Positions 1 through 23,891 of a stretch of DNA of 25,205 nucleotides are shown in pieces. The number at the start of each line of letters is the position of its first letter. Positions within the stretch are counted from its first letter, which is position 1. Source of the DNA: a virus (taxonomy: Duplodnaviria; Heunggongvirae; Uroviricota; Caudoviricetes); IMG/VR virus record IMGVR_UViG_2541047688_000007, positions 1-25,205 of that record, one strand, 5' to 3'. The translations under genes were made by a program, and so were the position numbers. The notes beneath the pieces are model-generated. The model made no database searches, was not told the origin of the DNA, and was given only the letters and a program-made list of their open reading frames with translations.

Positions 1-141
1 TTACTCAAAAAAAAGCGACGAGAAAATCAGCATCAACGAACAATAAGCGCCAATACGTGATAACAAATGGCAGCCATATTTATCTGCAGTATAAGCAATG
101 GACAGGATAACCACACCAGAAACCGTCAGCATAAAATCCAT
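1..141 (-). CDS. hypothetical small hydrophobic peptide (46 aa)
   Basis: Complete minus-strand ORF below the length cut-off of the supplied track: ATG at 139-141, TAA at 1-3, translation MDFMLTVSGVVILSIAYTADKYGCHLLSRIGAYCSLMLIFSSLFFE; GGGGAAG SD-like motif ~6 nt upstream; no homolog recognised. Confidence 0.2.
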   Translation of the reverse strand: MDFMLTVSGVVILSIAYTADKYGCHLLSRIGAYCSLMLIFSSLFFE

Positions 142-491
142 TTGAACTTCCCCGGACAAAATCGACTCATCTAAAGATTTACAGCTCTTTTTATTATCAA
201 TATGTTAAAAGTAAAATAAACAGATGTTCAATAACACGAATACAAAAACGTGCTGAAATTCAATGAATCCATTTCTGTGTCATCAATTAATAGTGATAAA
301 CATCCGGCTTCTTCCACCATCGCACCGGACAGGCGACTATGAGGGGACAACGCCGCGCTCCGTTAACGCGGTAAACCCCGGTGTGTATCGTTTTTGATTA
401 TCCCCGCACACTCGCGCAGAGGAGTCTCCCTGTCGGGCTGCGGTCTCTGTTAATGAGGGAATACAGCGACGATACGGCGCATCAACAAAAC

Positions 492-965
492 TTATTTCAG
501 GCACTGAGTGCGGATATAGTCCTGTGCCCCTTCCAGTTGCTTGTGCATCGTCATCAGCCGCTCTCTGAGGGTGAAATAATCCCGTGTAACGGTGTCTGCC
601 AGTTGGGGGCCGGTTGCATTATCCACGCCGGAGGTGGTGGGGGCTTCACGCACGGAGCCTGGACAGGTGGCGTTGATCCGCAGGCGCTTACGACCAGCGG
701 CAACATCAGCGCGCAGAGTTTCATTTTCAGCTCTCGCATCGGATAATTCCCTCGAGTATTTTGCATCGAGCGCAGCAACATCGCGCTGGCGCACCTGCAT
801 ATCAGTAATGGTTGCGTTCGCCAGCTTCAGTTCACTGGCTTTGTTATCGCGCTGCGCTTTGTAGGTAATCGCGTTATCACGGTAATGGTCTGTTGCCATC
901 CACAGCGCACCACAGGCCACCAGCAGAATAACGATAAACGCGGAAAGCATTCGGTTTATGTTCAC
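492..965 (-). CDS. Rz: i-spanin Rz (inner-membrane spanin subunit)
   Basis: 157-aa ORF with N-terminal TM segment and clear by-eye similarity to lambda Rz ([27 protein letters not shown]); apparent GTG start at 963-965 overlapping the stop of the upstream small ORF (GTGA); alternative ATG at 948-950. Confidence 0.85.
554..739 (-). CDS. Rz1: o-spanin Rz1 lipoprotein, embedded in the +1 frame of Rz
   Basis: Embedded [25 protein letters not shown]... with lipobox (VSAC) and proline-rich [11 protein letters not shown] core as in lambda Rz1; start chosen at internal Met by analogy with lambda Rz1 length (~60 aa); track ORF 554..781 is the unprocessed reading frame. Confidence 0.7.
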
Positions 966-1093
966 CCCAGCAACCCCGACGAAGACAACATCATCCAGGC
1001 CATGGAAAGAAAAAGAGCAACCAGCATTAGTGAAAATGAAATGCCGACAATTACACAGAGGATCTTCGCCAGCGTTATGAGTTTGTCTGACAT
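962..1093 (-). CDS. hypothetical single-TM peptide (43 aa) between endolysin and Rz
   Basis: ATG at 1091-1093 preceded by GGGAGG SD at ~7 nt; [43 protein letters not shown]; stop overlaps Rz start. Confidence 0.35.
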
Positions 1094-1107
1094 GCTTAAT
1101 CCTCCCT

Positions 1108-1290
1108 TCACGATTTCAACGCAATGACCAGTTTTGCCAGCCCATACAGCATCGGGGACACAGCAACACCGACCGCCACCCACTTAATGGCAAAAGCCAG
1201 TGCTCTGCTGATGTCATCAGTTACAGGCGCTTTCAGTTCAAGGCCATTTTTCATAGTCAACCTCAACAGAATTCGTTTATACTTCGCCAT
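1108..1290 (-). CDS. hypothetical small membrane protein (60 aa)
   Basis: ATG at 1288-1290 preceded by AGGGAG SD; [60 protein letters not shown], hydrophobic C-terminal half; the track start at 1323 lies inside a terminator hairpin and was not used. Confidence 0.35.
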
Positions 1291-1320
1291 GTTCTCCCTT
1301 GCCTTACTCAAGGTCAGAAA

Positions 1321-1360
1321 CACAAAACCCCGCTTGGTACCAACAAACGGGGTTTTTACT
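1321..1360. terminator. bidirectional rho-independent terminator-like hairpin between endolysin and downstream small ORFs
   Basis: CCCCG (1328-1332) pairs with CGGGG (1348-1352) around a palindromic TTGGTACCAA core; T-run follows on the plus strand (1353-1357) and A-run precedes (1324-1327), giving a T-run on both strands. Confidence 0.35.
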
Positions 1361-1446
1361 TTTATTCACTTACGTTTCGCCAGTTCGCAGGATTTCGTGT
1401 TATCCGCCCGCGTGGCCATACCTTATTTTTCAGCAAAATATTCTGC

Positions 1447-1980
1447 TTATCTGTCGATTCCCCAGCACGCCAGCGCGCTCTCCTGGTCACGACGGGATAC
1501 CTGACCATAACAGTTATTTGAGCGGATACGGCAGTCTCTGCCACCGTCCTTAATCCACCAGCGAATCGCCTCACACGCTCCCCTGCGATCACCTGCATTA
1601 ATTCGTTTATAAAACGTCGACGGGAAACACTTACCGGGACCAATGTTGTACGGACAGAATGACGCGATCCCCGCTTTCTGGGGTTCACTCAATGGCACTC
1701 TGATGTTTTTCTCCACCCATGCCAGCGCCTTATCACGCTCAATGGCGTTAACCCGGTCGCATTTTTCCTTCGACAACTTCATGCCCGGGACGACAGGTTT
1801 ACTATCCACCAGGATGGCACCGCGGCAGATGGTCCAGATACCCGCGCCATCACGGTATGCCGTGGTGTGGTTACCTTCCTTTTCATCCAGAAACTGGTCG
1901 AGGATTTCAGGCGCAGGCGCACCTGCGGCAATCAGCGCCAGAACGGCAGCCGACAGGCCGTATCTGATTTTTGCGTTCAT
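1447..1980 (-). CDS. R: endolysin, GH24 T4-lysozyme-like muramidase with N-terminal SAR/signal-anchor segment
   Basis: 177-aa ORF; catalytic E-x8-D-x5-T signature (EGNHTTAYRDGAGIWT); Gly/Ala-rich hydrophobic N-terminus (GLSAAVLALIAAGAPAP) as in SAR endolysins that partner with pinholins. Confidence 0.85.
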   Translation of the reverse strand: MNAKIRYGLSAAVLALIAAGAPAPEILDQFLDEKEGNHTTAYRDGAGIWTICRGAILVDSKPVVPGMKLSKEKCDRVNAIERDKALAWVEKNIRVPLSEPQKAGIASFCPYNIGPGKCFPSTFYKRINAGDRRGACEAIRWWIKDGGRDCRIRSNNCYGQVSRRDQESALACWGIDR

Positions 1981-2043: not shown

Positions 2044-2394
2044 TTAAGGTTGTGATTCCGGAGGAGTCTTCAGAGAACCAGTAATTCTTCCTGGTAGCTT
2101 TCCTTTGTAGGTTATCCACACATTCTGCGCCTCTAAAATTACGGGGCGCTTTTCCGGCGACTGCTCATCCCCTTCACATAACCCGGCAGCAACATCCAGG
2201 AAGACCTGTCTGATGCTCCTTCTGGCTGCTGCCTCATAAAACCCCAGCGCGGCACCTTCAACACGGTCCAGCGAGATGTCCAGGTCAAAAATTTCACCGT
2301 CAAAGCGTTTTTTGTCCCGTAACGCTAAAGTTACCGTAACTTTATTCTCAAAATTGCGGATCCCTTTCACAATCAGTTCATAGTTTTGAATCAT
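2044..2394 (-). CDS. hypothetical soluble protein (116 aa) inserted between holin and endolysin
   Basis: ORF starts 5 nt after the holin stop with GGAGAG SD ~7 nt upstream of ATG 2392-2394; hydrophilic sequence, no TM segment, no recognised motif. Confidence 0.5.
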   Translation of the reverse strand: MIQNYELIVKGIRNFENKVTVTLALRDKKRFDGEIFDLDISLDRVEGAALGFYEAAARRSIRQVFLDVAAGLCEGDEQSPEKRPVILEAQNVWITYKGKLPGRITGSLKTPPESQP

Positions 2395-2398
2395 TGAA

Positions 2399-2614
2399 TT
2401 ACTCTCCCCGCGCAGCCTTACGACGGTCCTCTCTGATTTTGAAATACAGGTTAGTCAGATATGTCAGGAAGCCCAGAACCAGACTCCCCAGTACACCAAT
2501 CGCAGCCCACTGTGACGGACTGACCTGATCAAGCCACTGTAAAAACCAGTAGCCAGCACTGCCTGCGGAGGTGCCGTAGGCAATGCCCGTTGAAATTTTA
2601 TCCATGGATTTCAT
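2399..2614 (-). CDS. S: holin, phage 21 S21-type pinholin (class II, dual-start)
   Basis: 71-aa product [71 protein letters not shown], which I recognise as essentially the phage 21 pinholin; dual-start motif M-K-S-M; strong GGAGGTGA SD; track ORF 2399..2713 over-extends upstream. Confidence 0.85.
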
Positions 2615-2751
2615 AGCCTCACCTCCGCAGCGAACGGATGGCGTAGTTATAAGGGGAGCGAAAAAGAAAGAATGCGCGATTGCGCAATATGGTAACGTCA
2701 GGGTATTATCCACTGGCTGAATAGATCACTTCACGTTTTTTGTTCCTTGCC

Positions 2752-2779: not shown

Positions 2780-2785
2780 GCATGT

Positions 2786-2815
2786 AAAAAGGCCCCAACA
2801 CATGTGCGTGGGGCC
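2786..2815 (-). terminator. rho-independent terminator-like hairpin upstream of the lysis cassette
   Basis: Minus-strand GGCCCCA...TGGGGCC 7-bp stem with 11-nt loop followed by TTTTT (plus-strand A-run 2786-2790). Confidence 0.4.
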
Positions 2816-3015
2816 TGAGAGTATACATGGTTTCAGTCAACTGCATGGTGCCGGGTGCCTCCCGGTGAATTCAGTACCAGCACCTGAATCCGCGATTATC
2901 CCATATACCTACTCGCTGATTGCCCCTCCGCACAGGGGGATTCACCATGCCAGTTTCTTTTAACAAACTCCCCGCAAACCAGACAACAGTCAACCGCCTG
3001 AATTGTGAGACATTT

Positions 3016-3054: not shown

Positions 3055-3131
3055 TGGCGCGTTGTACTGGATTCGAACCAGTGACCGATTGCTTAGAAGG
3101 CAATTGCTCTGTCCGGCTGAGCTAACAACGC
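3055..3131 (-). tRNA. argO: tRNA-Arg (anticodon UCU)
   Basis: Hand-folded cloverleaf on minus strand: 7-bp acceptor GCGTTGT/ACAACGC, D-arm GCTC...GAGC, anticodon arm ATTGC-CTTCTAA-GCAAT (UCU), T-arm ACTGG-TTCGAAT-CCAGT, encoded CCA; symbol by analogy with the ileZ-argN-argO cluster of Stx/lambdoid phages. Confidence 0.8.
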
Positions 3132-3144
3132 AGGATACAGATAA

Positions 3145-3221
3145 TGGACCGCCTTCGGGGACCCGAACTCCGCGCAACCAGCTTCGAAGGCTGGCGCTCT
3201 TTCCTGATGAGCTAATGGCGG
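3145..3221 (-). tRNA. argN: tRNA-Arg (anticodon UCG), possibly degenerate
   Basis: Minus-strand cloverleaf with anticodon arm CCAGC-CTTCGAA-GCTGG (UCG) and encoded CCA, but one A-A mismatch in the acceptor stem and one A-C mismatch in the T-stem, G at T-loop position 58. Confidence 0.55.
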
Positions 3222-3228
3222 TATGTGA

Positions 3229-3304
3229 TGGTGGCCCTTGCTGGATTTGAACCAGCGACCTGGCGATTATGAGTCGCTCGCTCTCACCACTGAGCTAAAG
3301 GGCC
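3229..3304 (-). tRNA. ileZ: tRNA-Ile2 (anticodon CAU, lysidine-type; formally Met-like anticodon)
   Basis: Minus-strand cloverleaf GGCCCTT...AAGGGCC acceptor, anticodon loop CTCATAA (CAU), T-arm GCTGG-TTCAAAT-CCAGC, encoded CCA; very similar by eye to E. coli ileX-type tRNA. Confidence 0.8.
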
Positions 3305-3353: not shown

Positions 3354-4403
3354 TCAAACGATTAAATCCTGAACTTCCCTGACTGTCTGCTCAAAACGTC
3401 CGGTCTCCAGTTCAACGCCAATCGCACGACGCCCGAGCGCCAGTGCCGCTTTTACCGTTGAACCTGAGCCCATAAAAAAATCTGCAACCAGGTCACCCGG
3501 ACGACTGCTTGCGCTGATTATCTGCTGCAGCATTTCTGCCGGTTTTTCGCACGGATGTTTCCCGGGATAGAACTGCACCGGTTTATGTGTCCATACATCC
3601 GTGTACGGCACCTGCGCCGTCACACCAAAATACCGCCGCAGATGCTTATATTCACTCTGCAGCTCCACATACTGCCGGTTCAGTGACGTATACGTATCCA
3701 CCAGCTGGTGGTGGGGCTTTTCCAGTTCACCGCGCTGATGTTTCTCTTCTGCCACCCGGGCAAACAGCGACTGTAATTTCAGATAATCGCTTTCGTTCGG
3801 TAGCTGCCACTGACTGGCACTGAACCAGTGCGACACCATGTTTTTCTTTCCTGTGACATCTGCAATCTGTTTTGCCGTTATCCCCAGGGCCGCGCGCGCA
3901 TCACGAAAGTAAGAAATCAGCGGGGCCATCACATGCTGTTTCAGTGCACTGCCCTTCGCCGCATACCCGGCATCTTTCGGACGATACGGCCCCTGATAAT
4001 GTTCCGCGAACAGAATGCGCTCTGTGGCGGGGAAATACGCCCGCAGGCTTTCCTTGTTGCATCCGTTCCAGCGTCCGGACGGCTTCGCCCAGATAATATG
4101 GTTCAGCACACTGAAGCGTTCACGCATCATGATTTCGATATCAGATGCCAGGCGATGACCACAGAACAGGTAAAGACTTCCGGCAGGTTTCAGCACCCGC
4201 CAGAACTGCGCCAGACACTGGTCCAGCCACTTCAGGTAATCATCGTCGCCCTTCCACTGGTTATCCCAGCCCTCAGGCTTCACTTTAAAGTACGGCGGGT
4301 CCGTGACTATCAGGTCAACAGAATTTTCGGGTAACGACCGGATAAATTCCAGGCAGTCGGCGTTGATTAACTCACAACTGGATATTTTTACAGTATTAAG
4401 CAT
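3354..4403 (-). CDS. DNA amino-methyltransferase (N6-adenine or N4-cytosine), beta-class
   Basis: 349-aa ORF with catalytic DPPY motif near N-terminus (LIVTDPPYF) and AdoMet-binding FxGxG motif near C-terminus (DFFMGSGST). Confidence 0.85.
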   Translation of the reverse strand: MLNTVKISSCELINADCLEFIRSLPENSVDLIVTDPPYFKVKPEGWDNQWKGDDDYLKWLDQCLAQFWRVLKPAGSLYLFCGHRLASDIEIMMRERFSVLNHIIWAKPSGRWNGCNKESLRAYFPATERILFAEHYQGPYRPKDAGYAAKGSALKQHVMAPLISYFRDARAALGITAKQIADVTGKKNMVSHWFSASQWQLPNESDYLKLQSLFARVAEEKHQRGELEKPHHQLVDTYTSLNRQYVELQSEYKHLRRYFGVTAQVPYTDVWTHKPVQFYPGKHPCEKPAEMLQQIISASSRPGDLVADFFMGSGSTVKAALALGRRAIGVELETGRFEQTVREVQDLIV

Positions 4404-4540
4404 GGATCATTAAGCCTGTCTCTGATAGGCTCATTCTGCTTTTGCGCAAAGCAGTGGGCCTGAGGTTTGCTTGTGAACCCAACGCATGAGCAGATGGCTG
4501 GTGGGTGCCCCTAACACCCACCAGCCGCCCATTTACCACA

Positions 4541-4567
4541 AATAAAAAAGCCTTCACTGCGGAAGGC
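4541..4567 (-). terminator. rho-independent terminator after small wHTH gene
   Basis: Minus-strand GCCTTC-CGCAGT-GAAGGC hairpin followed by TTTTTTATTT; hairpin overlaps the stop codon at 4554-4556. Confidence 0.45.
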
Positions 4568-4751
4568 GTCTGTAACAACCGAACTGATAGTCTGCCAGAC
4601 CCGCCATAACCAGCTGGGTCAGTATTAACTGGCAGCGTTCGCGTGAAAGGTAAGTATTCTGCGCTATCTCCCCGACTGTCGCCGGTTCGGTAACGCTTAA
4701 TTCATTAAACACTACTCTGGCGGTTTCTGTCATATCCTGCTGTTTTAGCAT
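4554..4751 (-). CDS. small winged-helix/HTH-like DNA-binding protein (65 aa), hypothetical regulator
   Basis: Internal ATG at 4749-4751 with AAGGGA SD; MLKQQDMTETARVVFNELSVTEPATVGEIAQNTYLSRERCQLILTQLVMAGLADYQFGCYRRLPQ has an HTH-like core; the 144-aa track form has a low-quality N-terminal extension running through a terminator and the neighbouring promoter. Confidence 0.45.
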   Translation of the reverse strand: MLKQQDMTETARVVFNELSVTEPATVGEIAQNTYLSRERCQLILTQLVMAGLADYQFGCYRRLPQ

Positions 4752-4874
4752 GTCTTTTTCCCTTTTCCGGTTAACGTGACACACCAATAACTCTTGTCGA
4801 AAAAGCCAGCAAGCTGAAAGACAGGTATTCGCAACCACCAGCACGTTTAACGTACTGCGCCGTTTTTCGGACAC

Positions 4875-4895
4875 AAAAAACCGCCTGGCGGCGGG
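4875..4895 (-). terminator. rho-independent terminator-like hairpin (minus strand)
   Basis: Minus-strand CCGCC-GCCA-GGCGG hairpin followed by TTTTTT (plus-strand A6 at 4875-4880). Confidence 0.35.
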
Positions 4896-4943
4896 TTTAA
4901 GCTGTGTGGCGTAGTAACCACTCTTAACACGATATAATATTTT

Positions 4944-4972
4944 TTGCGTACGCGTTATAGTTTTCTTACAAT
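4944..4972 (+). promoter_or_regulatory. candidate sigma70 promoter for the DUF262-HEPN operon
   Basis: TTGCGT (4944-4949), 17-bp spacer, TACAAT (4967-4972), about 30 nt upstream of the AAAGGAAC SD and ATG at 5005. Confidence 0.45.
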
Positions 4973-5004
4973 CTATTTCCAACTCCAATTAAAGGAACAG
5001 TGAT

Positions 5005-6162
5005 ATGACCACACTCAAAGAACTCAAAGAAGAGCTTGCTCAGATTCAAGATGAAAACGCGAAAAATAGAAAAAAAGCTGAAATTGCAGCCTTGGTCACT
5101 TCTGCCGACAACGAGATTAGGCTTGCTCAGAGAAATATTGGATACAACGTACGTGAATGGACCGTTGAATTAATTGTACAAAAGTATGGCAATAATCTTG
5201 AAACTGACAAAAACGAACTTTTTATTCCTGATTATCAACGCGATTACAAATGGGATATCAAAACAGCCTCTCGATTCATCGAAAGTATATTATTAGATTT
5301 TCCAATCCCGTACCTCTACATCTCCGACGTATTTAATGAAGATCCTGAGTTGGATGGTCGTGTAGAAATTATTGACGGTTCACAAAGGATTCGCTCAATT
5401 TACTACTTTTGGAACAATCAGTTTGAATTGAAAGACTTAAAAGAACTCAAAAGTTTAGAGGGCTTCAAATTTTCAGATCTTTTGGCTAGCCGCCAGAGGC
5501 GATTTTTAAGGGCATCACTAAGATTTATTGAATTGAAAGGTGATGTTGAGGAGCAGCATAGAAGAGATTTATTCGAAAGAATAAATTCAGGTGTTAAGAG
5601 ACTGGAAGCGATGGAGGTTAGACATGGTTCAGATGCGGCCACTTCAATTTTCTATAGGGATGTTGTGACTCCTTGCTCAACAAATCCACTTTTCGCTAGT
5701 CTAGCTCCATTATCAGATCGGAAACGTTCGAATGGCGATCATCGTGAGTTAGTTTTGAGATTTTTTGCATACTTAAATGATTTAGAAAATTATAAGGGTT
5801 ATGTCGCTCCTTTTATTGACAATTATCTTAATGTTCAGGCCGAAAGGGTCACACAACAAGATGTAGACAAATTTAAACATGATTTTGAAAGCATGCTTGC
5901 TTTTGTAGATGCTCATTTCCCTATGGGGTTTAAAAAGACACCAACAAGCAAAACCACCCCCCGTGCTAGATACGAAGCCATAGCAGTGGGAACTGCTCTT
6001 GCCTTAAAAGCCAATCCACATCTACAGGCTCCGGTTATTCCTGTAGGAGACTGGCTGTTTGGGGAGGAATTTGAAACCATAGTTACTGCTGATAGTGCCA
6101 ACAACACCAGCCAACTCAAAAACAGAATATTTTATGTCAAAGATAAATTATTAGGAATGTAA
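5005..6162 (+). CDS. DUF262 (ParB/Srx-like) domain protein, GmrS-type N-terminal module without recognisable DUF1524 nuclease domain
   Basis: 385-aa ORF; DUF262 signatures FIPDYQRDYKW and IIDGSQRIRS (DGQQR-type motif); no His-Me finger motif seen in C-terminal half; AT-rich codon usage. Confidence 0.75.
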   Translation: MTTLKELKEELAQIQDENAKNRKKAEIAALVTSADNEIRLAQRNIGYNVREWTVELIVQKYGNNLETDKNELFIPDYQRDYKWDIKTASRFIESILLDFPIPYLYISDVFNEDPELDGRVEIIDGSQRIRSIYYFWNNQFELKDLKELKSLEGFKFSDLLASRQRRFLRASLRFIELKGDVEEQHRRDLFERINSGVKRLEAMEVRHGSDAATSIFYRDVVTPCSTNPLFASLAPLSDRKRSNGDHRELVLRFFAYLNDLENYKGYVAPFIDNYLNVQAERVTQQDVDKFKHDFESMLAFVDAHFPMGFKKTPTSKTTPRARYEAIAVGTALALKANPHLQAPVIPVGDWLFGEEFETIVTADSANNTSQLKNRIFYVKDKLLGM

Positions 6163-6164
6163 CT

Positions 6165-6854
6165 ATGAGTTTGATTGATTTAAGAGATGAATACGAAGAA
6201 AGAGCAAGAGATATTATGGAATTGCTTTCTCTTGCGTCATCTTTAGAGGCTCAGACTCAGCAGTTAGATCAGCAAACGCATAAAGATGAAATAGAATCAA
6301 ATACCCTTAGGGTTAACATTTTAAAATCATCCGTGCACATGATGCTGTACAATCAGGTTGAAAACACTGCCAGAGGATGCATTGAGTCAATTTATGACCA
6401 TTTGCAAGATAATGAAGTAAATTACGCATCACTCAGGGAGAAATTCCAAGTAAATATCTTGCACCGTATCATTTCAGATAATGAATCGGGAAAATCTCTT
6501 TATCAAAAAATTGGTTCCGATATATCTAAAAGGATCATTTCAGCCTCATTAAACATACGTAAAGAATTCAATGGTAATGTTTGCAAGTCTGTATTGCACA
6601 AAATAACACAAGCTTACGGAATAACTGTTGCAAACTCACCAGAGTGTAGAAATGGTGTTGACTTAGATTTACTTAAAGATATCAGAAATGAGCTGGCACA
6701 TGGAAGTACCAGCTTTTCTAAAAAAGGTCAAATAGACCCTTTAGAAGAAGTCAAATCGAGGTCAGAAAGAATTGATCTATATTTGCGTTTATTAATCAAC
6801 TCAACAGAAAATTATATTACCTCTAACGGGTATTTATCCCCTCAACATGTCTGA
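6165..6854 (+). CDS. HEPN-like domain protein (putative RNase/abortive-infection effector)
   Basis: 229-aa ORF starting 2 nt after the DUF262 stop; C-terminal R-x4-H-G motif DIRNELAHG (residues ~174-180) typical of HEPN superfamily; assignment from motif only. Confidence 0.6.
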   Translation: MSLIDLRDEYEERARDIMELLSLASSLEAQTQQLDQQTHKDEIESNTLRVNILKSSVHMMLYNQVENTARGCIESIYDHLQDNEVNYASLREKFQVNILHRIISDNESGKSLYQKIGSDISKRIISASLNIRKEFNGNVCKSVLHKITQAYGITVANSPECRNGVDLDLLKDIRNELAHGSTSFSKKGQIDPLEEVKSRSERIDLYLRLLINSTENYITSNGYLSPQHV

Positions 6855-7863
6855 TAAATGTTTCCCCTATTATCTGACCAATTATAGGGGGAACAGCATT
6901 TCCAATCATTGTCCCCAATTTTTGGAATGAAAAAGGCGTCTCCTTGTCAAGGAATTTATAATCCATTGGAAAGGATTGCAAAATCGCAGCTTCACGCAAA
7001 GTTATGGCGCGATTTTGCTCAGGATGGCCAAATCGTCCATTTCCATATCCATAACACTGGGTAGTTATCGTAGGGCTAGTATCGTCCCAAACCATCCGTC
7101 CATAAACGCTTTTATAGGTAGCACCTGAATTCTTTTTATGACAGTCTGCTCTAATTTCTTCAGGCCAGTCATCCCACGTACCACCAGGTAAAGAATGCAT
7201 GATTCGTTTAAGATTGATATCCATCAATTTAGGCGAACGATGCAAGGGATCGCTTTCCAGCTTCTCACCTGCCCCTACTTTTGGCAACCTACCAATAGCA
7301 TCCTTAACAGTAACTTTACGGCTAACTTTTTTTTGATCAAGGCTGATCGGCCCCAATTGGGAACCAATTAGAATTAATCTACGTCTATTTTGAGGTAAGC
7401 CATACTCAGAACATCTTACAACGTCGTACCACAAATGATATCCAAGAGTCTTTAATGCACTAACAAACCCTTCAAAAACCTTATGGTTTCTAAGTTGAGG
7501 AACATTCTCCATCGTCACAAGCTCTGGCATTACATCACTTACAAGCCTTTGAAACTCATATAACAAACGCCACTTTGTATCGTCTTTACGGCTATTTGGA
7601 TTACGATACTTGGAAAACGGTTGGCAAGGAGCACATCCAGCAAGCAATCTAATATTTCCTTCCTTGAACATAGCAGACACATCGCAGGATTGCAGTTCTG
7701 TAACTGACTGATTAATGAACTGCGTTAAAGGATTATTGCTCTCAATAGCAAAACGGCAGGATTCATCAATATCAATACCATGAGAAACCTCAATCCCGGC
7801 TTTTTTTAGCCCAAAAGTTAAGCCCCCCGCACCACAAAAAATGTCTACTGCCTGAATGTTCAC
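6823..7863 (-). CDS. DNA (cytosine-5)-methyltransferase
   Basis: 346-aa ORF with C5-MTase motifs I (FCGAGG), IV (GCAPCQPFS, catalytic Cys), VI (ENV), QRRR and GNAV; GTG start at 7861-7863 with GGAG SD; 3' end overlaps HEPN gene by 32 bp (convergent). Confidence 0.9.
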   Translation of the reverse strand: MNIQAVDIFCGAGGLTFGLKKAGIEVSHGIDIDESCRFAIESNNPLTQFINQSVTELQSCDVSAMFKEGNIRLLAGCAPCQPFSKYRNPNSRKDDTKWRLLYEFQRLVSDVMPELVTMENVPQLRNHKVFEGFVSALKTLGYHLWYDVVRCSEYGLPQNRRRLILIGSQLGPISLDQKKVSRKVTVKDAIGRLPKVGAGEKLESDPLHRSPKLMDINLKRIMHSLPGGTWDDWPEEIRADCHKKNSGATYKSVYGRMVWDDTSPTITTQCYGYGNGRFGHPEQNRAITLREAAILQSFPMDYKFLDKETPFSFQKLGTMIGNAVPPIIGQIIGETFIRHVEGINTR

Positions 7864-7926
7864 AAGATTCTCCGTTACTTTATCCTGGTATTATATACAC
7901 ATAAAAGTTGGGAAAGTAGAACGATT

Positions 7927-8295
7927 TTACATAGAACTTAAGTCATTGTAGTAAATGAAAAATGACAAGCAGCCATCAATAAACCCCATTGCTGTTTGCA
8001 TCTCTTTCCGTATTGTTCCATCTGAACATTTCCGTTTTTTAGCAATAGCGCGTAATGAGATACCAATAACAAAGTGAGCAATGATCAACTCATACTCTTC
8101 GGGTTTATACTTTCGCAACCGAGCCACACAACCGTCTATCATGATACCTTCGTCATCATCACACTGGAGACGTGACTTTTTACCGTGTGGTAAAAGCCCC
8201 TTGAAGCCTGCTGCTATCGGCTGCCAGTCCACACCACTGTTATCTGCTGCAGCCCAGGCCCCCCAACGATCTAAAACTTCGTACATATCACGCAT
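7927..8295 (-). CDS. Q: late-gene antiterminator Q (phage 82/QuuD-like family)
   Basis: 122-aa ORF MRDMYEVLDRWGAWAAADNSGVDWQPIAAGFKGL... with Cys-rich zinc-binding-like region; resembles the small Q proteins of phage 82 and the DLP12 prophage as I recall them; last gene of the coupled early operon. Confidence 0.7.
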   Translation of the reverse strand: MRDMYEVLDRWGAWAAADNSGVDWQPIAAGFKGLLPHGKKSRLQCDDDEGIMIDGCVARLRKYKPEEYELIIAHFVIGISLRAIAKKRKCSDGTIRKEMQTAMGFIDGCLSFFIYYNDLSSM

Positions 8296-12194: not shown

Positions 12195-13042
12195 GGGCGA
12201 ACCTCCTTGTCAGAACCATTCAGCCTGGAATCAACAAGTGCAGCGCCAAAAACAGCATCACCAACACGGTCGTACAGTTTGCTAGCCAGCGGAGATTCAA
12301 CGGCCTTAAGCATTGGATAAAGCTGGCTTGTCCAGATTTGATGGATTTCACGCAAATGCAGGTATACGCCTCTGGCGTTTCGTGCGACAGCTGACATATC
12401 AGACGTATCGGCACCTGATAAACTCTTCTCCATCAGGTTAAAGGCGTTGATGTATGCCTCTTTGAACCGGGCAGCACGTTTACCAGTGAAGCCCATGGCA
12501 AGGAACGCGAAGCCATCGCGGGTGATTTGATAGCAAGGTAGTTTGCGGCCTGATGCGTCGGTGTATTCACTTAACACAAAATTGTGTTCAGTAAATTCAG
12601 CGGAACATTCGAGGTTTCTAATTCTATCTAAAACCCGCTCATGCCGTTTAGTAAAGTAATTAGCTACTGCAAGAGATGTGGTGACAACGCGACCATTGAT
12701 AATCGTGATTTCAGGGTGAGATTGGGTTGGGAGAGTAGTCATGGTGACAGCCCCTATGTTGAATTCAATGAACTCACCACCAAGGCTTTCCACGACCATA
12801 TAGGTGGTGAGACGTACAGGGGTGGAAATACCGGTCAACATAGAACCCGGCCCAACCGAAGTTGGCCCTGCACGCCCCACCATAATTTGGGCGTAACGAT
12901 GCTCATGACACGAAAAAACCGCATGAGCGCGGTTGTGCTCTATATTGAATTTCGGGTTTCCACGCCCGGCACCCGCTTTATAAGGTGCAGAGACAGTGTA
13001 ACGTCCCGAAATTGCAGAATCAATATGCTGGTGGCGGATCAT
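12191..13042 (-). CDS. Rha-family phage regulatory protein (paralog 2)
   Basis: Core ITIINGRVVTTSLAVANYFTKRHERVLDRIRNLECSAEF...ITRDGFAFLAMGFTGKRAARFKEAYINAFNLME matches the Rha (Phage_pRha) pattern as I recall it; ~100-aa N-terminal extension whose first residues are shared with the upstream paralog. Confidence 0.7.
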   Translation of the reverse strand: MIRHQHIDSAISGRYTVSAPYKAGAGRGNPKFNIEHNRAHAVFSCHEHRYAQIMVGRAGPTSVGPGSMLTGISTPVRLTTYMVVESLGGEFIEFNIGAVTMTTLPTQSHPEITIINGRVVTTSLAVANYFTKRHERVLDRIRNLECSAEFTEHNFVLSEYTDASGRKLPCYQITRDGFAFLAMGFTGKRAARFKEAYINAFNLMEKSLSGADTSDMSAVARNARGVYLHLREIHQIWTSQLYPMLKAVESPLASKLYDRVGDAVFGAALVDSRLNGSDKEVRP

Positions 13043-13701
13043 AGGTGCACCTCCCGTTGATTACGACGGAACGCGGAGTGACCCTGGACGGTTTCAGCCT
13101 CATGGAATGCTTCAATACAGCTCTCGTAGTACCGCATTGTGCGCAGACTTAACCCAAGCTGAAGCATCATCAGACCATCAAGGGTGATGTAATAACCACG
13201 CAGGGAGTCACCGTAGATGTGATAAGTACCCGGTATGAAATTGCGGGTAAAAAACTCGCGTGAGCAGTTCAGATACTCGATTTTGTCGACGATGTTCTGG
13301 TGCATGCGCTTAAAGTGGCAGGCAACATGCAGGGAGAAAATAACGGCCTTGCCGTTGACAACTTCAATTTTGAGGAATGGGGAAGTTGGGACTGTAGCCA
13401 TGATGGCAGCCTCCGTTGACTGTGGAAAACTTCCACCACCGGAGCTGCGAAACTCACTGGTGGCAGACTGAACAGGGTTCGCAGTACCGGCGTCAACGGA
13501 GACCGGCGAGCCTTTCGGCTCCCCTGCCCAGCCCACCATAATTCTGGCGTGCGTGAGCGCGGACGATAAAAAAGACGCTGGCGCGTCATATATCGCCGTT
13601 GACAATTCCGGGCTGCGACCCCCGGCACCCGCTTTATAAGGTGCAGAGACAGTGTAACGTCCCGAAATTGCAGAATCAATATTTGGTCTTGAAATGATCA
13701 T
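13039..13701 (-). CDS. Rha-family phage regulatory protein (paralog 1, divergent)
   Basis: Core EVVNGKAVIFSLHVACHFKRMHQNIVDKIEYLNCSREF...ITLDGLMMLQLGL resembles the Rha domain; N-terminal DSAISGRYTVSAPYKAGAG shared with the downstream paralog. Confidence 0.6.
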   Translation of the reverse strand: MIISRPNIDSAISGRYTVSAPYKAGAGGRSPELSTAIYDAPASFLSSALTHARIMVGWAGEPKGSPVSVDAGTANPVQSATSEFRSSGGGSFPQSTEAAIMATVPTSPFLKIEVVNGKAVIFSLHVACHFKRMHQNIVDKIEYLNCSREFFTRNFIPGTYHIYGDSLRGYYITLDGLMMLQLGLSLRTMRYYESCIEAFHEAETVQGHSAFRRNQREVHL

Positions 13702-16585: not shown

Positions 16586-16763
16586 CATAATCGCCGCTTC
16601 GCCCTTCAAGGTACATGCGAACATTTTTATCAATCATTGCGGAAACAGTCTCAATATGAAAACACTTCTGAGACTCGCTATATAGCAGAACTGAAGTGGT
16701 TTACTGAATTTGGCCACCTGAACAGAGGTGATATGCTCACCTCAGAACAACACAGGTGCCATA

Positions 16764-17911
<1,148 letters not shown>

Positions 17912-17967
17912 CTCGGTGGCCAGTTTTTGTTGACCACTTCAGAACATATAAGTCAGCTGAGGAAGCC

Positions 17968-22188: not shown

Positions 22189-22520
22189 AGAATGAATAAA
22201 GCATTTGAACGATGGGTCCACCAGCGTTACGGCAATCGCTATGACCTGACGCGAGATGTTGACGGCTTCTACTGTCGTGAAGTTGTGAAGCGAATGTTTG
22301 AAGTGTGGTGCCACTGCCGTGGGCTGAGTGTTGTGTGAGGTAATACATGGGCAATGTGATTCAACTGGCTCCCAATGAATGGGTTTGTGAAAGCGTTCTT
22401 ATCGCAATTACCGGGCTCAAACCAGGCACAATTCTTCGGGCCCGGAAATGAAGTGGTTTACTGAATTTGGCCACCTGAACAGAGGTGATATGCTCACCTC
22501 AGAACAACACAGGTGCCATA

Positions 22521-23668
<1,148 letters not shown>

Positions 23669-23891
23669 CTCGGTGGCCAGTTTTTGTTGACCACTTCAAA
23701 AGAATGCTGGATGGTTGGAAGAGAGTATATTCACGTATCACCAGACGGTAATCCAAAGCCTTCCAGTGAATGTATGTATAACAGAAAAGCAATAGATGCC
23801 TGGGTCGCCTCAATGAAAAACAAACAACCCAGGTGATTTAATATCATGAAATATGTAAGCTCGTATCGCTCTTGGGCGTCTGGAGGTATCG

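Follow-up and report, generated by a model that had tools for sequence, protein, structure and literature searches.

Between the endolysin gene R and the spanin gene Rz, an E. coli prophage carries a hairpin and two short open reading frames. What are these elements doing in a lysis cassette, and do they belong to the lysis machinery at all? They lie in a window of 25,205 nucleotides, the whole stretch of DNA that was analysed, from a tailed virus of the Caudoviricetes (IMG/VR record IMGVR_UViG_2541047688_000007). The original prediction took the hairpin for a terminator that separates R from Rz, and suggested that the two encoded membrane peptides might act as antiholins, lysis inhibitors or exclusion factors.

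An insert between the endolysin and Rz genes

The module occupies the junction of the cell-wall enzyme gene with Rz, and its parts all lie on the minus strand (Table 1). The host cassette is of the phage-21-like type, with a pinholin and a SAR endolysin, and the N-terminus of R (MNAKIRYGLSAAVLALIAAGA) is hydrophobic and SAR-like. In many E. coli prophages, the 90-nt spacer is conserved as one piece with the R 3' end that it follows (matches covering query 3-169), and the 17-codon ORF inside the spacer is also open in P27 and ATCC 11775. At the module's opposite end, the predicted overlap of ORF2 with the Rz start depends on which start is used: it holds for GTG 965, where the ORF2 TGA and the Rz start share the letters GTGA, and fails for ATG 950, which lies 11 nt downstream and is the start given in the RefSeq (PGAP) annotation of SF-088. 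In P27, ORF2 has no overlap with Rz, which there has its own annotated ribosome-binding site.

Table 1. Positions in the window of the insert, the surrounding lysis genes and related features
Feature	Position	Strand	Details
Rz, i-spanin	492-965	-	start GTG 965 or ATG 950; Pfam Phage_lysis, E 7e-47
Rz1, o-spanin	about 554-739	-	embedded in Rz; Pfam Rz1, E 7e-20
ORF2	1093-962	-	43 aa; ATG 1093, stop 962-964
ORF1	1290-1108	-	60 aa; ATG 1290, stop 1108-1110
Promoter-like site TAGTCA-18-TATACT	1254-1283	+	antisense to ORF1; 9/12 matches
Leader GTGTTTCTGACCTTGAGTAAGGCAAGGGAGAAC	1291-1323	-	carries SD AAGGGAG (1300-1294)
Hairpin	1324-1356	both	GC-rich stem-loop with U-runs on both strands; bidirectional intrinsic-terminator shape
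Spacer	1357-1446	-	90 nt, between R stop and hairpin
17-codon ORF	1419-1366	-	inside the spacer; ends 10 nt 5' of the hairpin
R, SAR-type endolysin	1447-1980	-	177 aa; Pfam Phage_lysozyme, E 2e-23; PHROG 7, endolysin
Holin of the cassette, S21-type	2399-2713		pinholin of the phage-21-like cassette
Q antiterminator gene	7927-8295		found within the window

The departure from the canonical cassette that had been proposed was borne out by comparison with insert-free cassettes. In K-12 Qin and DLP12 the R gene overlaps Rz by 4 nt, and R also overlaps Rz in six other genera (L090-L094, with L095 as a frame-shifted case); therefore, the R-Rz junction is a site at which cargo is inserted. A scan of genome contigs with Rz returned only six loci, all with canonical R/Rz adjacency; they served as a control and carried no information on the insert. 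The cargo itself varies. In addition to the module described here, we found ant with ORF2 (Stx phages), an ant-like gene with a 45-aa membrane peptide and ORF2, the 45-aa membrane peptide alone, ORF1 alone, ORF1 with a 28-aa RWW peptide, and ORF1 and ORF2 with a methylase. Three unrelated families of small membrane peptides (phrog_1115, 4906 and 6632) recur directly before Rz, and all three retain the hydrophobic character of a single helix. Of 5426 complete E. coli genomes, 989 contain 80% or more of the module, and its genes are accessory, with a patchy distribution; both ORFs are annotated only as "hypothetical" in the E. coli records listed.

The hairpin, its leader and nearby promoter-like sites

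A hairpin with T-runs on both strands had been predicted downstream of the endolysin gene, and it is indeed present, beginning 91 nt past the R stop, with a 13-bp stem that includes six GC pairs and a 7-nt loop. Its 81-nt context folds at -25 kcal/mol (z -3.4), and none of 200 shuffled sequences folds equally well. On the minus strand UUUUGUGUUU stands directly 3' of the hairpin, whereas on the plus strand, where the flank is UUUUUACUUUUAUU, the stem is weaker (9 bp plus 3 bp); the plus strand nevertheless has a good U-run, and an A-rich 5' flank is present in all homologues. Across 14 contexts 94% of the cells are paired, as against 31-63% in slid controls, and there are 22 double-change cells compared with 8.1 ± 2.2 in shuffles, none of 500 of which scored as high. 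Compensatory changes occur in five of the 12 hairpin pairs, and P27 has a hairpin of different sequence at the equivalent place after the spacer. Having a stem-loop, a U-run and a structure that is kept in relatives, the hairpin is of the intrinsic-terminator type, and it is predicted to terminate transcription. The comparative data back the hairpin as well as both ORFs, unlike the single-sequence terminator scan, which showed no enrichment (4 sites against 4.1 expected).

It does not follow that the hairpin separates R from Rz at the time of lysis. As the window contains a Q antiterminator gene, the hairpin should be read through in lytic growth, and the separation of the two genes by a terminator, as originally proposed, probably does not apply at that stage. 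Its importance probably lies chiefly in the lysogen, or in a role as an RNA element.

The leader between the hairpin and ORF1 is strongly conserved, with only two of its 33 columns variable among 31 distinct E. coli module sequences, and its motif TTTCTGACCTTGAG is found again in distant contexts (L005, L006 and L102). Pairing of CCTTG (1313-1309) with CAAGG (1301-1297) may form a mini-stem in the leader, so that masking of the SD is possible; as the mini-stem is invariant, covariation gives this idea no support, and its fold is no better than that of shuffles.

The distance from the hairpin to ORF1 is only 33 nt, and a consensus scan of the minus strand, which a weak promoter could escape, found no sigma-70-like promoter near 1291-1446. 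On the plus strand there is a promoter-like site antisense to ORF1. Transcription from this site, if it is active, would stop at the hairpin and yield a speculative RNA of about 75 nt with complementarity to the ORF1 SD. The corresponding motif, T(A/G)G(T/A)CA-18-TATA(C/A)T, is retained in seven enterobacterial homologues and absent in distant ones; however, the site overlaps conserved ORF1 codons, and its retention is therefore confounded by coding constraint. The promoter scan showed no enrichment over shuffles, and Rfam gave no family above threshold. Sub-threshold plus-strand matches to Rfam (rimP leader, ohsC) were rejected as generic matches to terminators. In the Hfq-CRAC data, no sRNA is listed at the R-Rz junctions of O157 Sakai Sp6 and Sp10 (PMC4104026, table S2); since these junctions carry ant and not ORF1, the test is a weak one. 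The same study places EcOnc11 downstream of Rz in Sakai (PMC4104026).

Two predicted single-pass peptides and their relatives

The two short ORFs with strong SDs and hydrophobic segments are present as originally described and are conserved. In the alignment of relatives that had been proposed as a check, both frames are intact, with no gaps among 53 loci. The ORF1 ATG stands 3 nt after its SD, AAGGGAG, and the ORF2 ATG 7 nt after AGGGAGG, which the ORF1 stop abuts. Each peptide has one hydrophobic segment, at residues 38-56 in ORF1 (mean Kyte-Doolittle 1.88) and at residues 11-29 in ORF2 (mean 2.89), and topology prediction, another proposed check, gives one helix per peptide with the N-terminus inside. 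ORF1 is predicted to begin with a basic helix and to end in a membrane helix, and is thus of the tail-anchored type, whereas ORF2 is predicted to be a single-pass membrane peptide. The AF2 model of ORF1 has helices at 2-14 and 23-59 (pLDDT 75); a fold search with this 60-aa helical hairpin was judged uninformative.

The PHROG matches are to families of unknown function only, phrog_1115 for ORF1 (E 2.6e-42, residues 1-60) and phrog_4906 for ORF2 (E 2.1e-23, residues 1-43). Searches of Pfam, NCBIfam and PDB sequences gave nothing significant for either peptide, neither matched a holin in Pfam, NCBIfam or PHROG, PADLOC returned no matches, and no homology to holin, antiholin, exclusion or defence families was found. 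Our literature search found no paper that deals with either ORF or with any small gene located at the R-Rz junction, and a comparative paper on Stx phages makes no mention of the ORFs (PMC8136144).

The codon-level comparison clearly indicates that ORF1 is under purifying selection: its pN/pS is 0.07-0.33, its variable columns fall 2/1/9 on the three codon positions, and its membrane helix holds conserved residues. ORF2 is less constrained (pN/pS 0.34-0.69), and its homologues, of 43-44 aa, nearly all come from records named E. coli. Within ORF1 there is an in-frame start at M13 (ATG 1254-1252), preceded by the SD GAGG (1264-1261), which would yield a 48-aa form. The GAGG-6nt-ATG arrangement is created by a rare Arg codon, AGG, that is present in every ORF1 homologue compared at the codon level, while the codons upstream of this internal SD change synonymously. 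M13 is therefore a probable second start of ORF1.

Relatives of ORF1 were also found well away from lysis cassettes. In other phages, genes of this family, which encode tail-anchored peptides of 50-64 aa, stand between the tail genes K and I, between the tail tube and chaperone genes, following capsid or fibre genes, and where capsid and connector genes meet, in every case with a similar hairpin 30-60 nt upstream. Many of them end in ...RWW-stop, encoded by TGGTGGTGA (or TGGTGGTAG), and in L097, L100 and L102 the next gene starts 1-4 nt past the stop. Among the genes that accompany them, one codes for a lysozyme, one for an M15 peptidase and one for an endolysin-like protein that has a PG-binding domain, and tandem copies occur in L104, L117 and L039. 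A scan of viral contigs with the ORF1 alignment returned 80 near-identical loci of low diversity, whereas the P0246 search returned no loci. The remote members are so divergent that their alignment was no suitable query for such a scan. Two further loci (L118 and L119) were rejected as spurious. A third (L006), which appeared to show a non-lysis context beside a Mu-like transposase, proved to be the same post-endolysin region as in phiSTEC1575-Stx2k (L120), upstream of which a Mu-like prophage has probably inserted; it is therefore not evidence of independence from lysis genes.

The presence of hairpin-fronted family members at head and tail junctions weakens the lysis-specific role, as antiholin or lysis inhibitor, that had been suggested for the peptides. 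As the pairing of the hairpin is kept and the family always stands behind a hairpin, the hairpin together with the leader and the peptide gene behaves as a single portable unit. However, the motif at the base of the hairpin, AAAACCCCG/CGGGGTTTT, is one generic to terminators, so that some of the upstream hairpins could belong to the preceding gene rather than to the cassette.

Function of the insert and comparison with known systems

On the evidence above, the insert looks like accessory cargo rather than core lysis machinery. The reading that we favour, and consider the probable one, is that of a portable, terminator-fronted and promoter-less accessory cassette, a 'moron' in Hendrix's sense, whose inner-membrane peptides are expressed late in a Q-dependent manner. 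Its three parts are the hairpin of the intrinsic-terminator type, the conserved leader, and the two tightly packed genes for single-pass peptides. In the lysogen, the hairpin would stop stray transcription from either direction, and since there is no sense promoter detected between the hairpin and ORF1, and expression would depend on the Q antiterminator, the peptides should be silent. Upon induction, Q-modified RNA polymerase would read through the hairpin; this would allow translation of ORF1 (probably as a 60-aa and a 48-aa product), ORF2 and Rz/Rz1, whose cistrons are close together or overlap, and the peptides would insert into the inner membrane with their N-termini inside. As to what they do there, our best guess is a self-contained late membrane activity, either tuning membrane energisation and the timing of lysis or blocking the entry of DNA from superinfecting or returning phages. 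We consider it less likely that the peptides are specific partners of R or Rz. ORF2, with its weak constraint and near-confinement to E. coli, could do little beyond acting as a leader for the coupling of Rz.

The most direct alternative is that ORF1, ORF2 or both are dedicated regulators of lysis, which act on the S21-type pinholin, on the membrane-tethered SAR endolysin or on the Rz spanin in the manner of an antiholin or a releasin and thereby set the timing of lysis. We find this rather unlikely, even though E. coli and Salmonella-like prophages have the genes within their lysis cassettes, immediately before Rz, where three unrelated families of small membrane peptides recur. Precedents exist in P2 lysA, located between the endolysin gene and the Rz-equivalent lysB, and in Mu gp25, which is reportedly a releasin; moreover, the two apparent starts of ORF1, a basic 12-residue extension apart, recall the holin/antiholin dual start of lambda S107/S105. 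However, ORF1 relatives between head and tail genes are far from any lysis gene, the variety of cell-wall enzymes beside other members means that the family is not tied to SAR endolysins, and canonical cassettes, in which R simply overlaps Rz, function without these peptides, neither of which matched a holin family in Pfam or PHROG. Another possibility is that the peptides are morons for superinfection exclusion or progeny protection, which block DNA entry or receptor function at the inner membrane in the way of HK97 gp15 or of Pseudomonas prophage Sie genes. LES-phi3 and JBD44 of Pseudomonas carry Sie genes at tail tube/chaperone and post-endolysin junctions (10.1101/2024.03.05.583538), positions typical of morons at which the ORF1 family is also found, and the products here are likewise small membrane proteins encoded by patchy, accessory genes. 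Nevertheless, this is an unlikely explanation, as the scan found no promoter for expression from the prophage, a terminator stands directly upstream, and the searches showed no similarity of the peptides to known exclusion or defence families.

Two other explanations are still less probable. ORF1 might be the membrane toxin of a unit resembling a type I toxin-antitoxin system, its ribosome-binding site covered by the cis-antisense RNA of about 75 nt that would run from the plus-strand promoter-like site to the hairpin. The plus-strand U-run, the A-rich 5' flank in all homologues, the motif in seven enterobacterial ones, the tandem copies, the perhaps partly masked SD and the small hydrophobic products (60 aa and 43 aa, one helix each) suit such a unit. 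Yet we regard it as improbable: the site falls on conserved codons and is missing in distant homologues, the promoter scan did not exceed shuffles, the Rfam matches are sub-threshold and terminator-driven, and the Sakai junctions, in a test weakened by the ant genes there, yielded no Hfq-bound sRNA. It is also quite doubtful that the peptides are functionless and that the ORFs, ORF2 above all, are kept as translated leaders that restored coupling to Rz, and perhaps directed the mRNA to the membrane, once R and Rz had been split by the hairpin and cargo. Although the shared GTGA, the pN/pS of up to 0.69 in ORF2, the TGGTGGTGA (or TGGTGGTAG) ends with closely following genes and the 4-nt R-Rz overlap of canonical cassettes would fit coupling, the purifying selection on ORF1 with its conserved membrane-helix residues, the helix hydrophobicity kept in all three peptide families, and the P27 arrangement without overlap argue against it. 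Returning to the portable accessory cassette, a more elaborate version may be put forward tentatively, and we would not call it likely: the hairpin, the leader, the dual-start peptide gene and an SD-like 3' end (...RWW-stop, encoded by TGGTGGTGA) would form a promoter-less mini-cassette that has spread among many different late-operon junctions, with the upstream bidirectional terminator as a gate, so that synthesis of the peptide would require Q-modified RNA polymerase, or would be repressed by an antisense RNA with its end at that same hairpin. Such an arrangement, if real, would be a previously undescribed way of building a membrane-active accessory gene of a phage, whether late-only or addictive.

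These possibilities are important because about one in five complete E. coli genomes carries the module in a prophage lysis cassette, with both of its peptides nameless. If the peptides tune lysis or block DNA entry, they would affect the outcome of prophage induction in pathogenic E. coli, including phage release and, in stx-carrying relatives, the release of toxin. A peptide family travelling with its own upstream terminator would also be an example of how essential operons can accept small accessory genes and remain intact, and it identifies the R-Rz junction as a hot spot for cargo beside the known site downstream of pR'.

Among known systems, phage morons (Juhala/Hendrix; HK97 gp15) share several features with the insert, which likewise interrupts a pair of genes that are neighbours in related phages, is patchily distributed in a late operon, and codes for small membrane proteins. 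However, a classical moron is preceded by a promoter and followed by a terminator of its own, and it is expressed in the prophage state, whereas here the terminator-like hairpin lies upstream, ORF2 runs into Rz, and the consensus scan found no promoter. The membrane helix of HK97 gp15, a YebO-like protein, is N-terminal; ORF1 differs from this protein in being tail-anchored and without a Pfam family match. The dual-start holin/antiholin genes (lambda S107/S105, phage 21 S71/S68) and P2 lysA also encode small membrane proteins in or beside lysis cassettes, and ORF1 resembles the former in its apparent two in-frame starts, the longer form with extra positive charge. In contrast to them, it has one C-terminal helix and starts 12 codons rather than 2-3 codons apart, shows no sequence similarity, and belongs to a family found outside lysis cassettes as well. 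With type I toxin-antitoxin systems (hok/sok, including hokW-sokW of Sakai Sp5) the insert shares a gene for a small hydrophobic peptide, a leader with structure and a terminator that an antisense RNA could use; on the other hand, there is no family match above threshold, and the conserved 30-residue cytoplasmic part of ORF1 is unusual for such toxins.

The Sie morons of Pseudomonas (LES-phi3 and the two-gene system of JBD44) are small accessory genes at the same kinds of late-operon junction, but they have another host and unrelated sequences. One of these Sie genes, Zip, has a mapped promoter and is expressed from the prophage (10.1101/2024.03.05.583538). The ant genes of Stx phages (933W/P27/Sakai Sp5-Sp10 type) occupy the same site as the insert, with the same R 3' end, the 90-nt spacer and an ORF2-family gene before Rz; the difference is that an antirepressor-like gene, of 190 aa in P27 and Sakai and of 231 aa in an Stx1a phage (L003), stands in the place of ORF1.

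Two small membrane-peptide genes between R and Rz

The module formed by a hairpin, its leader, ORF1 and ORF2 between the endolysin gene R and Rz is real and common. Rechecking the sequence features bore out the original prediction's account of the hairpin, both ORFs, their Shine-Dalgarno sequences and their hydrophobic segments. A 561-bp stretch recurs with 100% identity in E. coli SF-088, and 989 of 5426 complete E. coli genomes carry at least 80% of it. Neither ORF contains a gap in 53 full-length copies (31 distinct sequences). Variation in ORF1 falls mostly at third codon positions (2/1/9; pN/pS 0.07-0.33); ORF2 is less constrained (pN/pS 0.34-0.69) and conserved in its N-terminal half, but its length is kept at 43-44 aa. 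Each peptide has one hydrophobic stretch exceeding the usual membrane-helix threshold. As basic residues precede the helix in both, the N-terminus is predicted to lie inside, and with just four residues past its helix ORF1 is predicted to be tail-anchored.

Features of the module and its surroundings (window positions)
Feature	Position	Strand	Remarks
Small hydrophobic ORF	1-159	-	46-52 aa; ~330 nt downstream of Rz; hypothetical in SF-088
Candidate sRNA region	~370-418	+	just downstream of Rz, opposite strand
Rz with embedded Rz1	492-965	-	downstream of module
ORF2	ATG 1093 to stop 962	-	43 aa; behind AGGGAGG, which abuts ORF1 stop
Promoter-like site	1254-1283	+
ORF1	ATG 1290 to stop 1108	-	60 aa; behind AAGGGAG
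Hairpin	1356-1324	-	starts 91 nt past lysozyme stop; 13-bp stem, 6 GC pairs, 7-nt loop
Spacer ORF MATRADNTKSCELAKRK	1366-1419	-	17 codons; in 90-nt spacer, ends 10 nt before stem
Lysozyme (R)	1447-1980	-	N-terminus hydrophobic, SAR-like
DUF1327/YdfR gene	2044-2394	-	116 aa; between S21-type pinholin and SAR endolysin
S21-type class II holin	within 2399-2713	-	first of the lysis genes in order
STnc100 sRNA	2780-2979	-	Rfam, 139 bits; directly upstream of holin
Three tRNA genes	3055-3304	-	upstream of STnc100; Met/CAT (Ile per RefSeq, SF-088), Arg, Arg
Cargo block	3354-8295		between Q and holin
N6/N4 methylase	3354-4403	-	cargo block
GmrSD_N and HEPN proteins	5005-6854	+	cargo block; defence-like
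C5 DNA methylase	6823-7863	-	cargo block
Q antiterminator, PF06530	7927-8295		upstream of late genes
C4 antisense RNA and isrK RNA	12800-12988; 13456-13644	-	tandem copies; adjoin Rha/Ash-type regulator genes
Direct repeat	16688-17941; 22445-23698		1254 bp, 99.9% identity

ORF1 probably has two starts, M1 and M13. The M1 ribosome-binding site lies merely 3 nt from the ATG and may pair with an upstream CCTTG; this mini-stem shows no variation and folds no better than shuffled sequence. M13 has GAGG 6 nt ahead, a motif that all the homologues compared owe to the rare Arg codon AGG. The twelve codons ahead of M13 vary synonymously (ATT/ATC/ATA, CTG/CTC/CTA/CTT), which indicates that they are also translated. 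Two products are predicted: one of 48 aa and a longer one of 60 aa that adds four basic residues. At the compared loci L005 (2561-2590) and L113 (~40 nt before the ORF1-like start), the conserved leader Shine-Dalgarno sequence and ATG open an 8-codon mini-ORF (MGREVLYL and MCREVYSL, respectively) whose TGA shares bases with the GTG at which the ORF1-like gene starts, so that leader-peptide coupling replaces the direct start.

Some neighbouring features also deserve mention. The DUF1327/YdfR-family gene, placed as in K-12 Qin (essQ-ydfR-rrrQ), is a further uncharacterised passenger of the lysis cassette. The plus-strand region beyond Rz, 94.5% homologous to the Sakai Sp10 region bearing the Hfq-CRAC peak EcOnc11 (Tree et al. 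2014), may encode an Hfq-bound sRNA that runs towards the lysis genes convergently. The C4/isrK copies suggest a duplicated P1/P7-style antirepressor control module, and the direct repeats, each with a 112-aa and a 272-aa ORF, probably represent an insertion sequence present twice.

The R-Rz junction and settings beyond lysis

As originally predicted, the layout departs from the canonical cassette, since in K-12 Qin and DLP12, as in Rz loci of Atlantibacter, Enterobacter, Pantoea, Dryocola and Pluralibacter, the endolysin gene ends within or directly against the start of Rz. The predicted overlap of ORF2 with Rz holds for a possible GTG start (GTGA), but not for the RefSeq PGAP start, ATG 950, 11 nt downstream. 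The junction is a cargo site. In E. coli prophages a hairpin comes after a constant R 3' end and 90-nt spacer, and the cargo beyond it varies: ORF1 and ORF2 in the window; ORF1 alone in L113, a Salmonella-like locus; ORF1 with a 28-aa '...AIRWW' peptide (L059); ORF1 and ORF2 with an ORF1 fragment and RWW peptide (L039, L046) or with a DNA methylase (L065); ORF2 with an antirepressor gene in Stx phage P27 and in Sakai Sp6 and Sp10; in L003, ORF2 together with an ant-like gene and a 45-aa membrane peptide; and, in ATCC 11775, a 45-aa membrane peptide with nothing else. Small membrane peptides of three unrelated families (phrog_1115, 4906 and 6632) recur just before Rz. The small-ORF array is recombinationally unstable, since some E. 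coli (L039/L046 2426-2646; database proteins P0085-P0099) show it partly duplicated or fused by frameshift: in one type the ORF2 N-terminus is joined to the ORF1 C-terminus, and in another an ORF1 fragment stands with an RWW peptide.

The 81-nt context of the hairpin has a folding energy of -25 kcal/mol (z -3.4). A single-sequence terminator scan gave no enrichment over shuffles; the case for the module rests on comparison with relatives. P27 carries a differing hairpin at the same position after the spacer, so that this spot seems to retain some hairpin regardless of its sequence. In P27 and ATCC 11775 the spacer ORF carries substitutions but no interruption; putatively, a ribosome halted on it could hinder hairpin formation.

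A full HMMER search with the ORF1 profile recovered remote relatives of 42-64 aa with the rough pattern M-x-K-Y-K/R-R-I-L-x-R-L-T/S-M-K-N-G-L-E-V-D-A-P-V-T, then a membrane helix and, in many, a C-terminal A-I-R-W-W. Judged by Pfam on neighbouring genes in viral contigs, lysis cassettes are not the sole setting of the family. Members lie between genes for a lambda K-like JAB plus NlpC/P60 protein and a Lambda_tail_I protein (L102 and L103, with L105 similar), between those for tail tube protein and tail assembly chaperone (L099) or for major capsid protein and a DUF4054 protein (L106), after tail fibre genes (L096, L101, L116), and after endolysins, namely lysozymes (L100, L113), M15 peptidases (L005, L120) and a PG-binding-domain protein whose motif was read as GH19-like (L097). 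In phiSTEC1575-Stx2k (L120, 2127-2837) and L006 (1730-2598), an M15 endolysin is followed by a 93-aa protein (phrog_33497), an ORF1-family RWW peptide and a three-Cys lipoprotein of 60 aa (phrog_7528), and the annotation lists no Rz/Rz1.

Every ORF1-family locus listed has a GC-rich stem-loop 30-60 nt upstream of the ORF, flanked by A-rich (5') and T-rich (3') sequence. Aligned over 14 distinct contexts, the consensus helix has 12 bp with 94% of cells paired; in slid controls pairing drops to 31-63%. Five pairs show compensatory double changes (22 cells against 8.1+-2.2 in shuffles, the observed value being reached in 0 of 500). The leader motif TTTCTGACCTTGAG...AAGGA is common to contexts as unlike as L005, L006, L102 and the window. 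Several RWW-type genes terminate in TGGTGGTGA (or TGGTGGTAG), resembling a ribosome-binding site, and the next gene begins 1-4 nt on in L097, L100 and L102. We take the hairpin, the leader and the peptide gene together for a single portable unit able to sit within an operon; to a portable hairpin-plus-peptide design as such we give a fairly low probability. The stem base is a generic terminator motif, so some hairpins could belong to the upstream gene.

Expression and possible functions

No sigma-70-like site was found on the minus strand from R to ORF1, and the ORF1 ATG lies only 33 nt from the hairpin. In lambdoid late transcription, intrinsic terminators are ignored by Q-modified polymerase. 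With a Q antiterminator in the window, the hairpin would halt stray transcription, sense and antisense, in the lysogen; after induction it would be read through, and ORF1, ORF2 and Rz/Rz1 would be produced together.

With moderate confidence, we regard the module as an accessory cassette with a terminator at its front, whose inner-membrane peptides would be made late. The lysis role originally raised is in keeping with the genes' usual location, the predicted dual start of ORF1 and the fact that membrane peptides recur ahead of Rz. However, the head and tail contexts of the ORF1 family, the varied associated endolysins and the lack of any holin similarity found weaken it, and we consider a function in lysis timing rather doubtful. 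Exclusion or progeny protection is unlikely: the positions fit morons, and in Pseudomonas phages Sie genes lie between tail tube and chaperone and also after the endolysin (10.1101/2024.03.05.583538), but no promoter was found.

A type I toxin-antitoxin-like layout would suit a terminator predicted to work both ways and the plus-strand promoter-like site, conserved in seven close homologues. That site, however, coincides with conserved codons and is missing from distant homologues, and no RNA evidence for it was found; we consider such a layout improbable. A purely coupling-leader role is conceivable for ORF2, with little probability; for ORF1, purifying selection rules out a purely coupling function.

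Relation to known systems

The genes for ORF1 and ORF2 are already in databases, uncharacterised, as hypothetical proteins (their only label in the E. coli records listed) and as PHROGs 1115 and 4906, both function-unknown families. Neither peptide has a significant match in Pfam, NCBIfam, PADLOC or PDB, and the module falls in no holin, exclusion, defence or toxin family among those tested. The ant gene of Stx phages, which is antirepressor-like, occupies the same site. Among known kinds, phage morons come closest. In contrast to the module, for which no promoter was found and whose terminator lies upstream, a classical moron has its own promoter and a terminator downstream.
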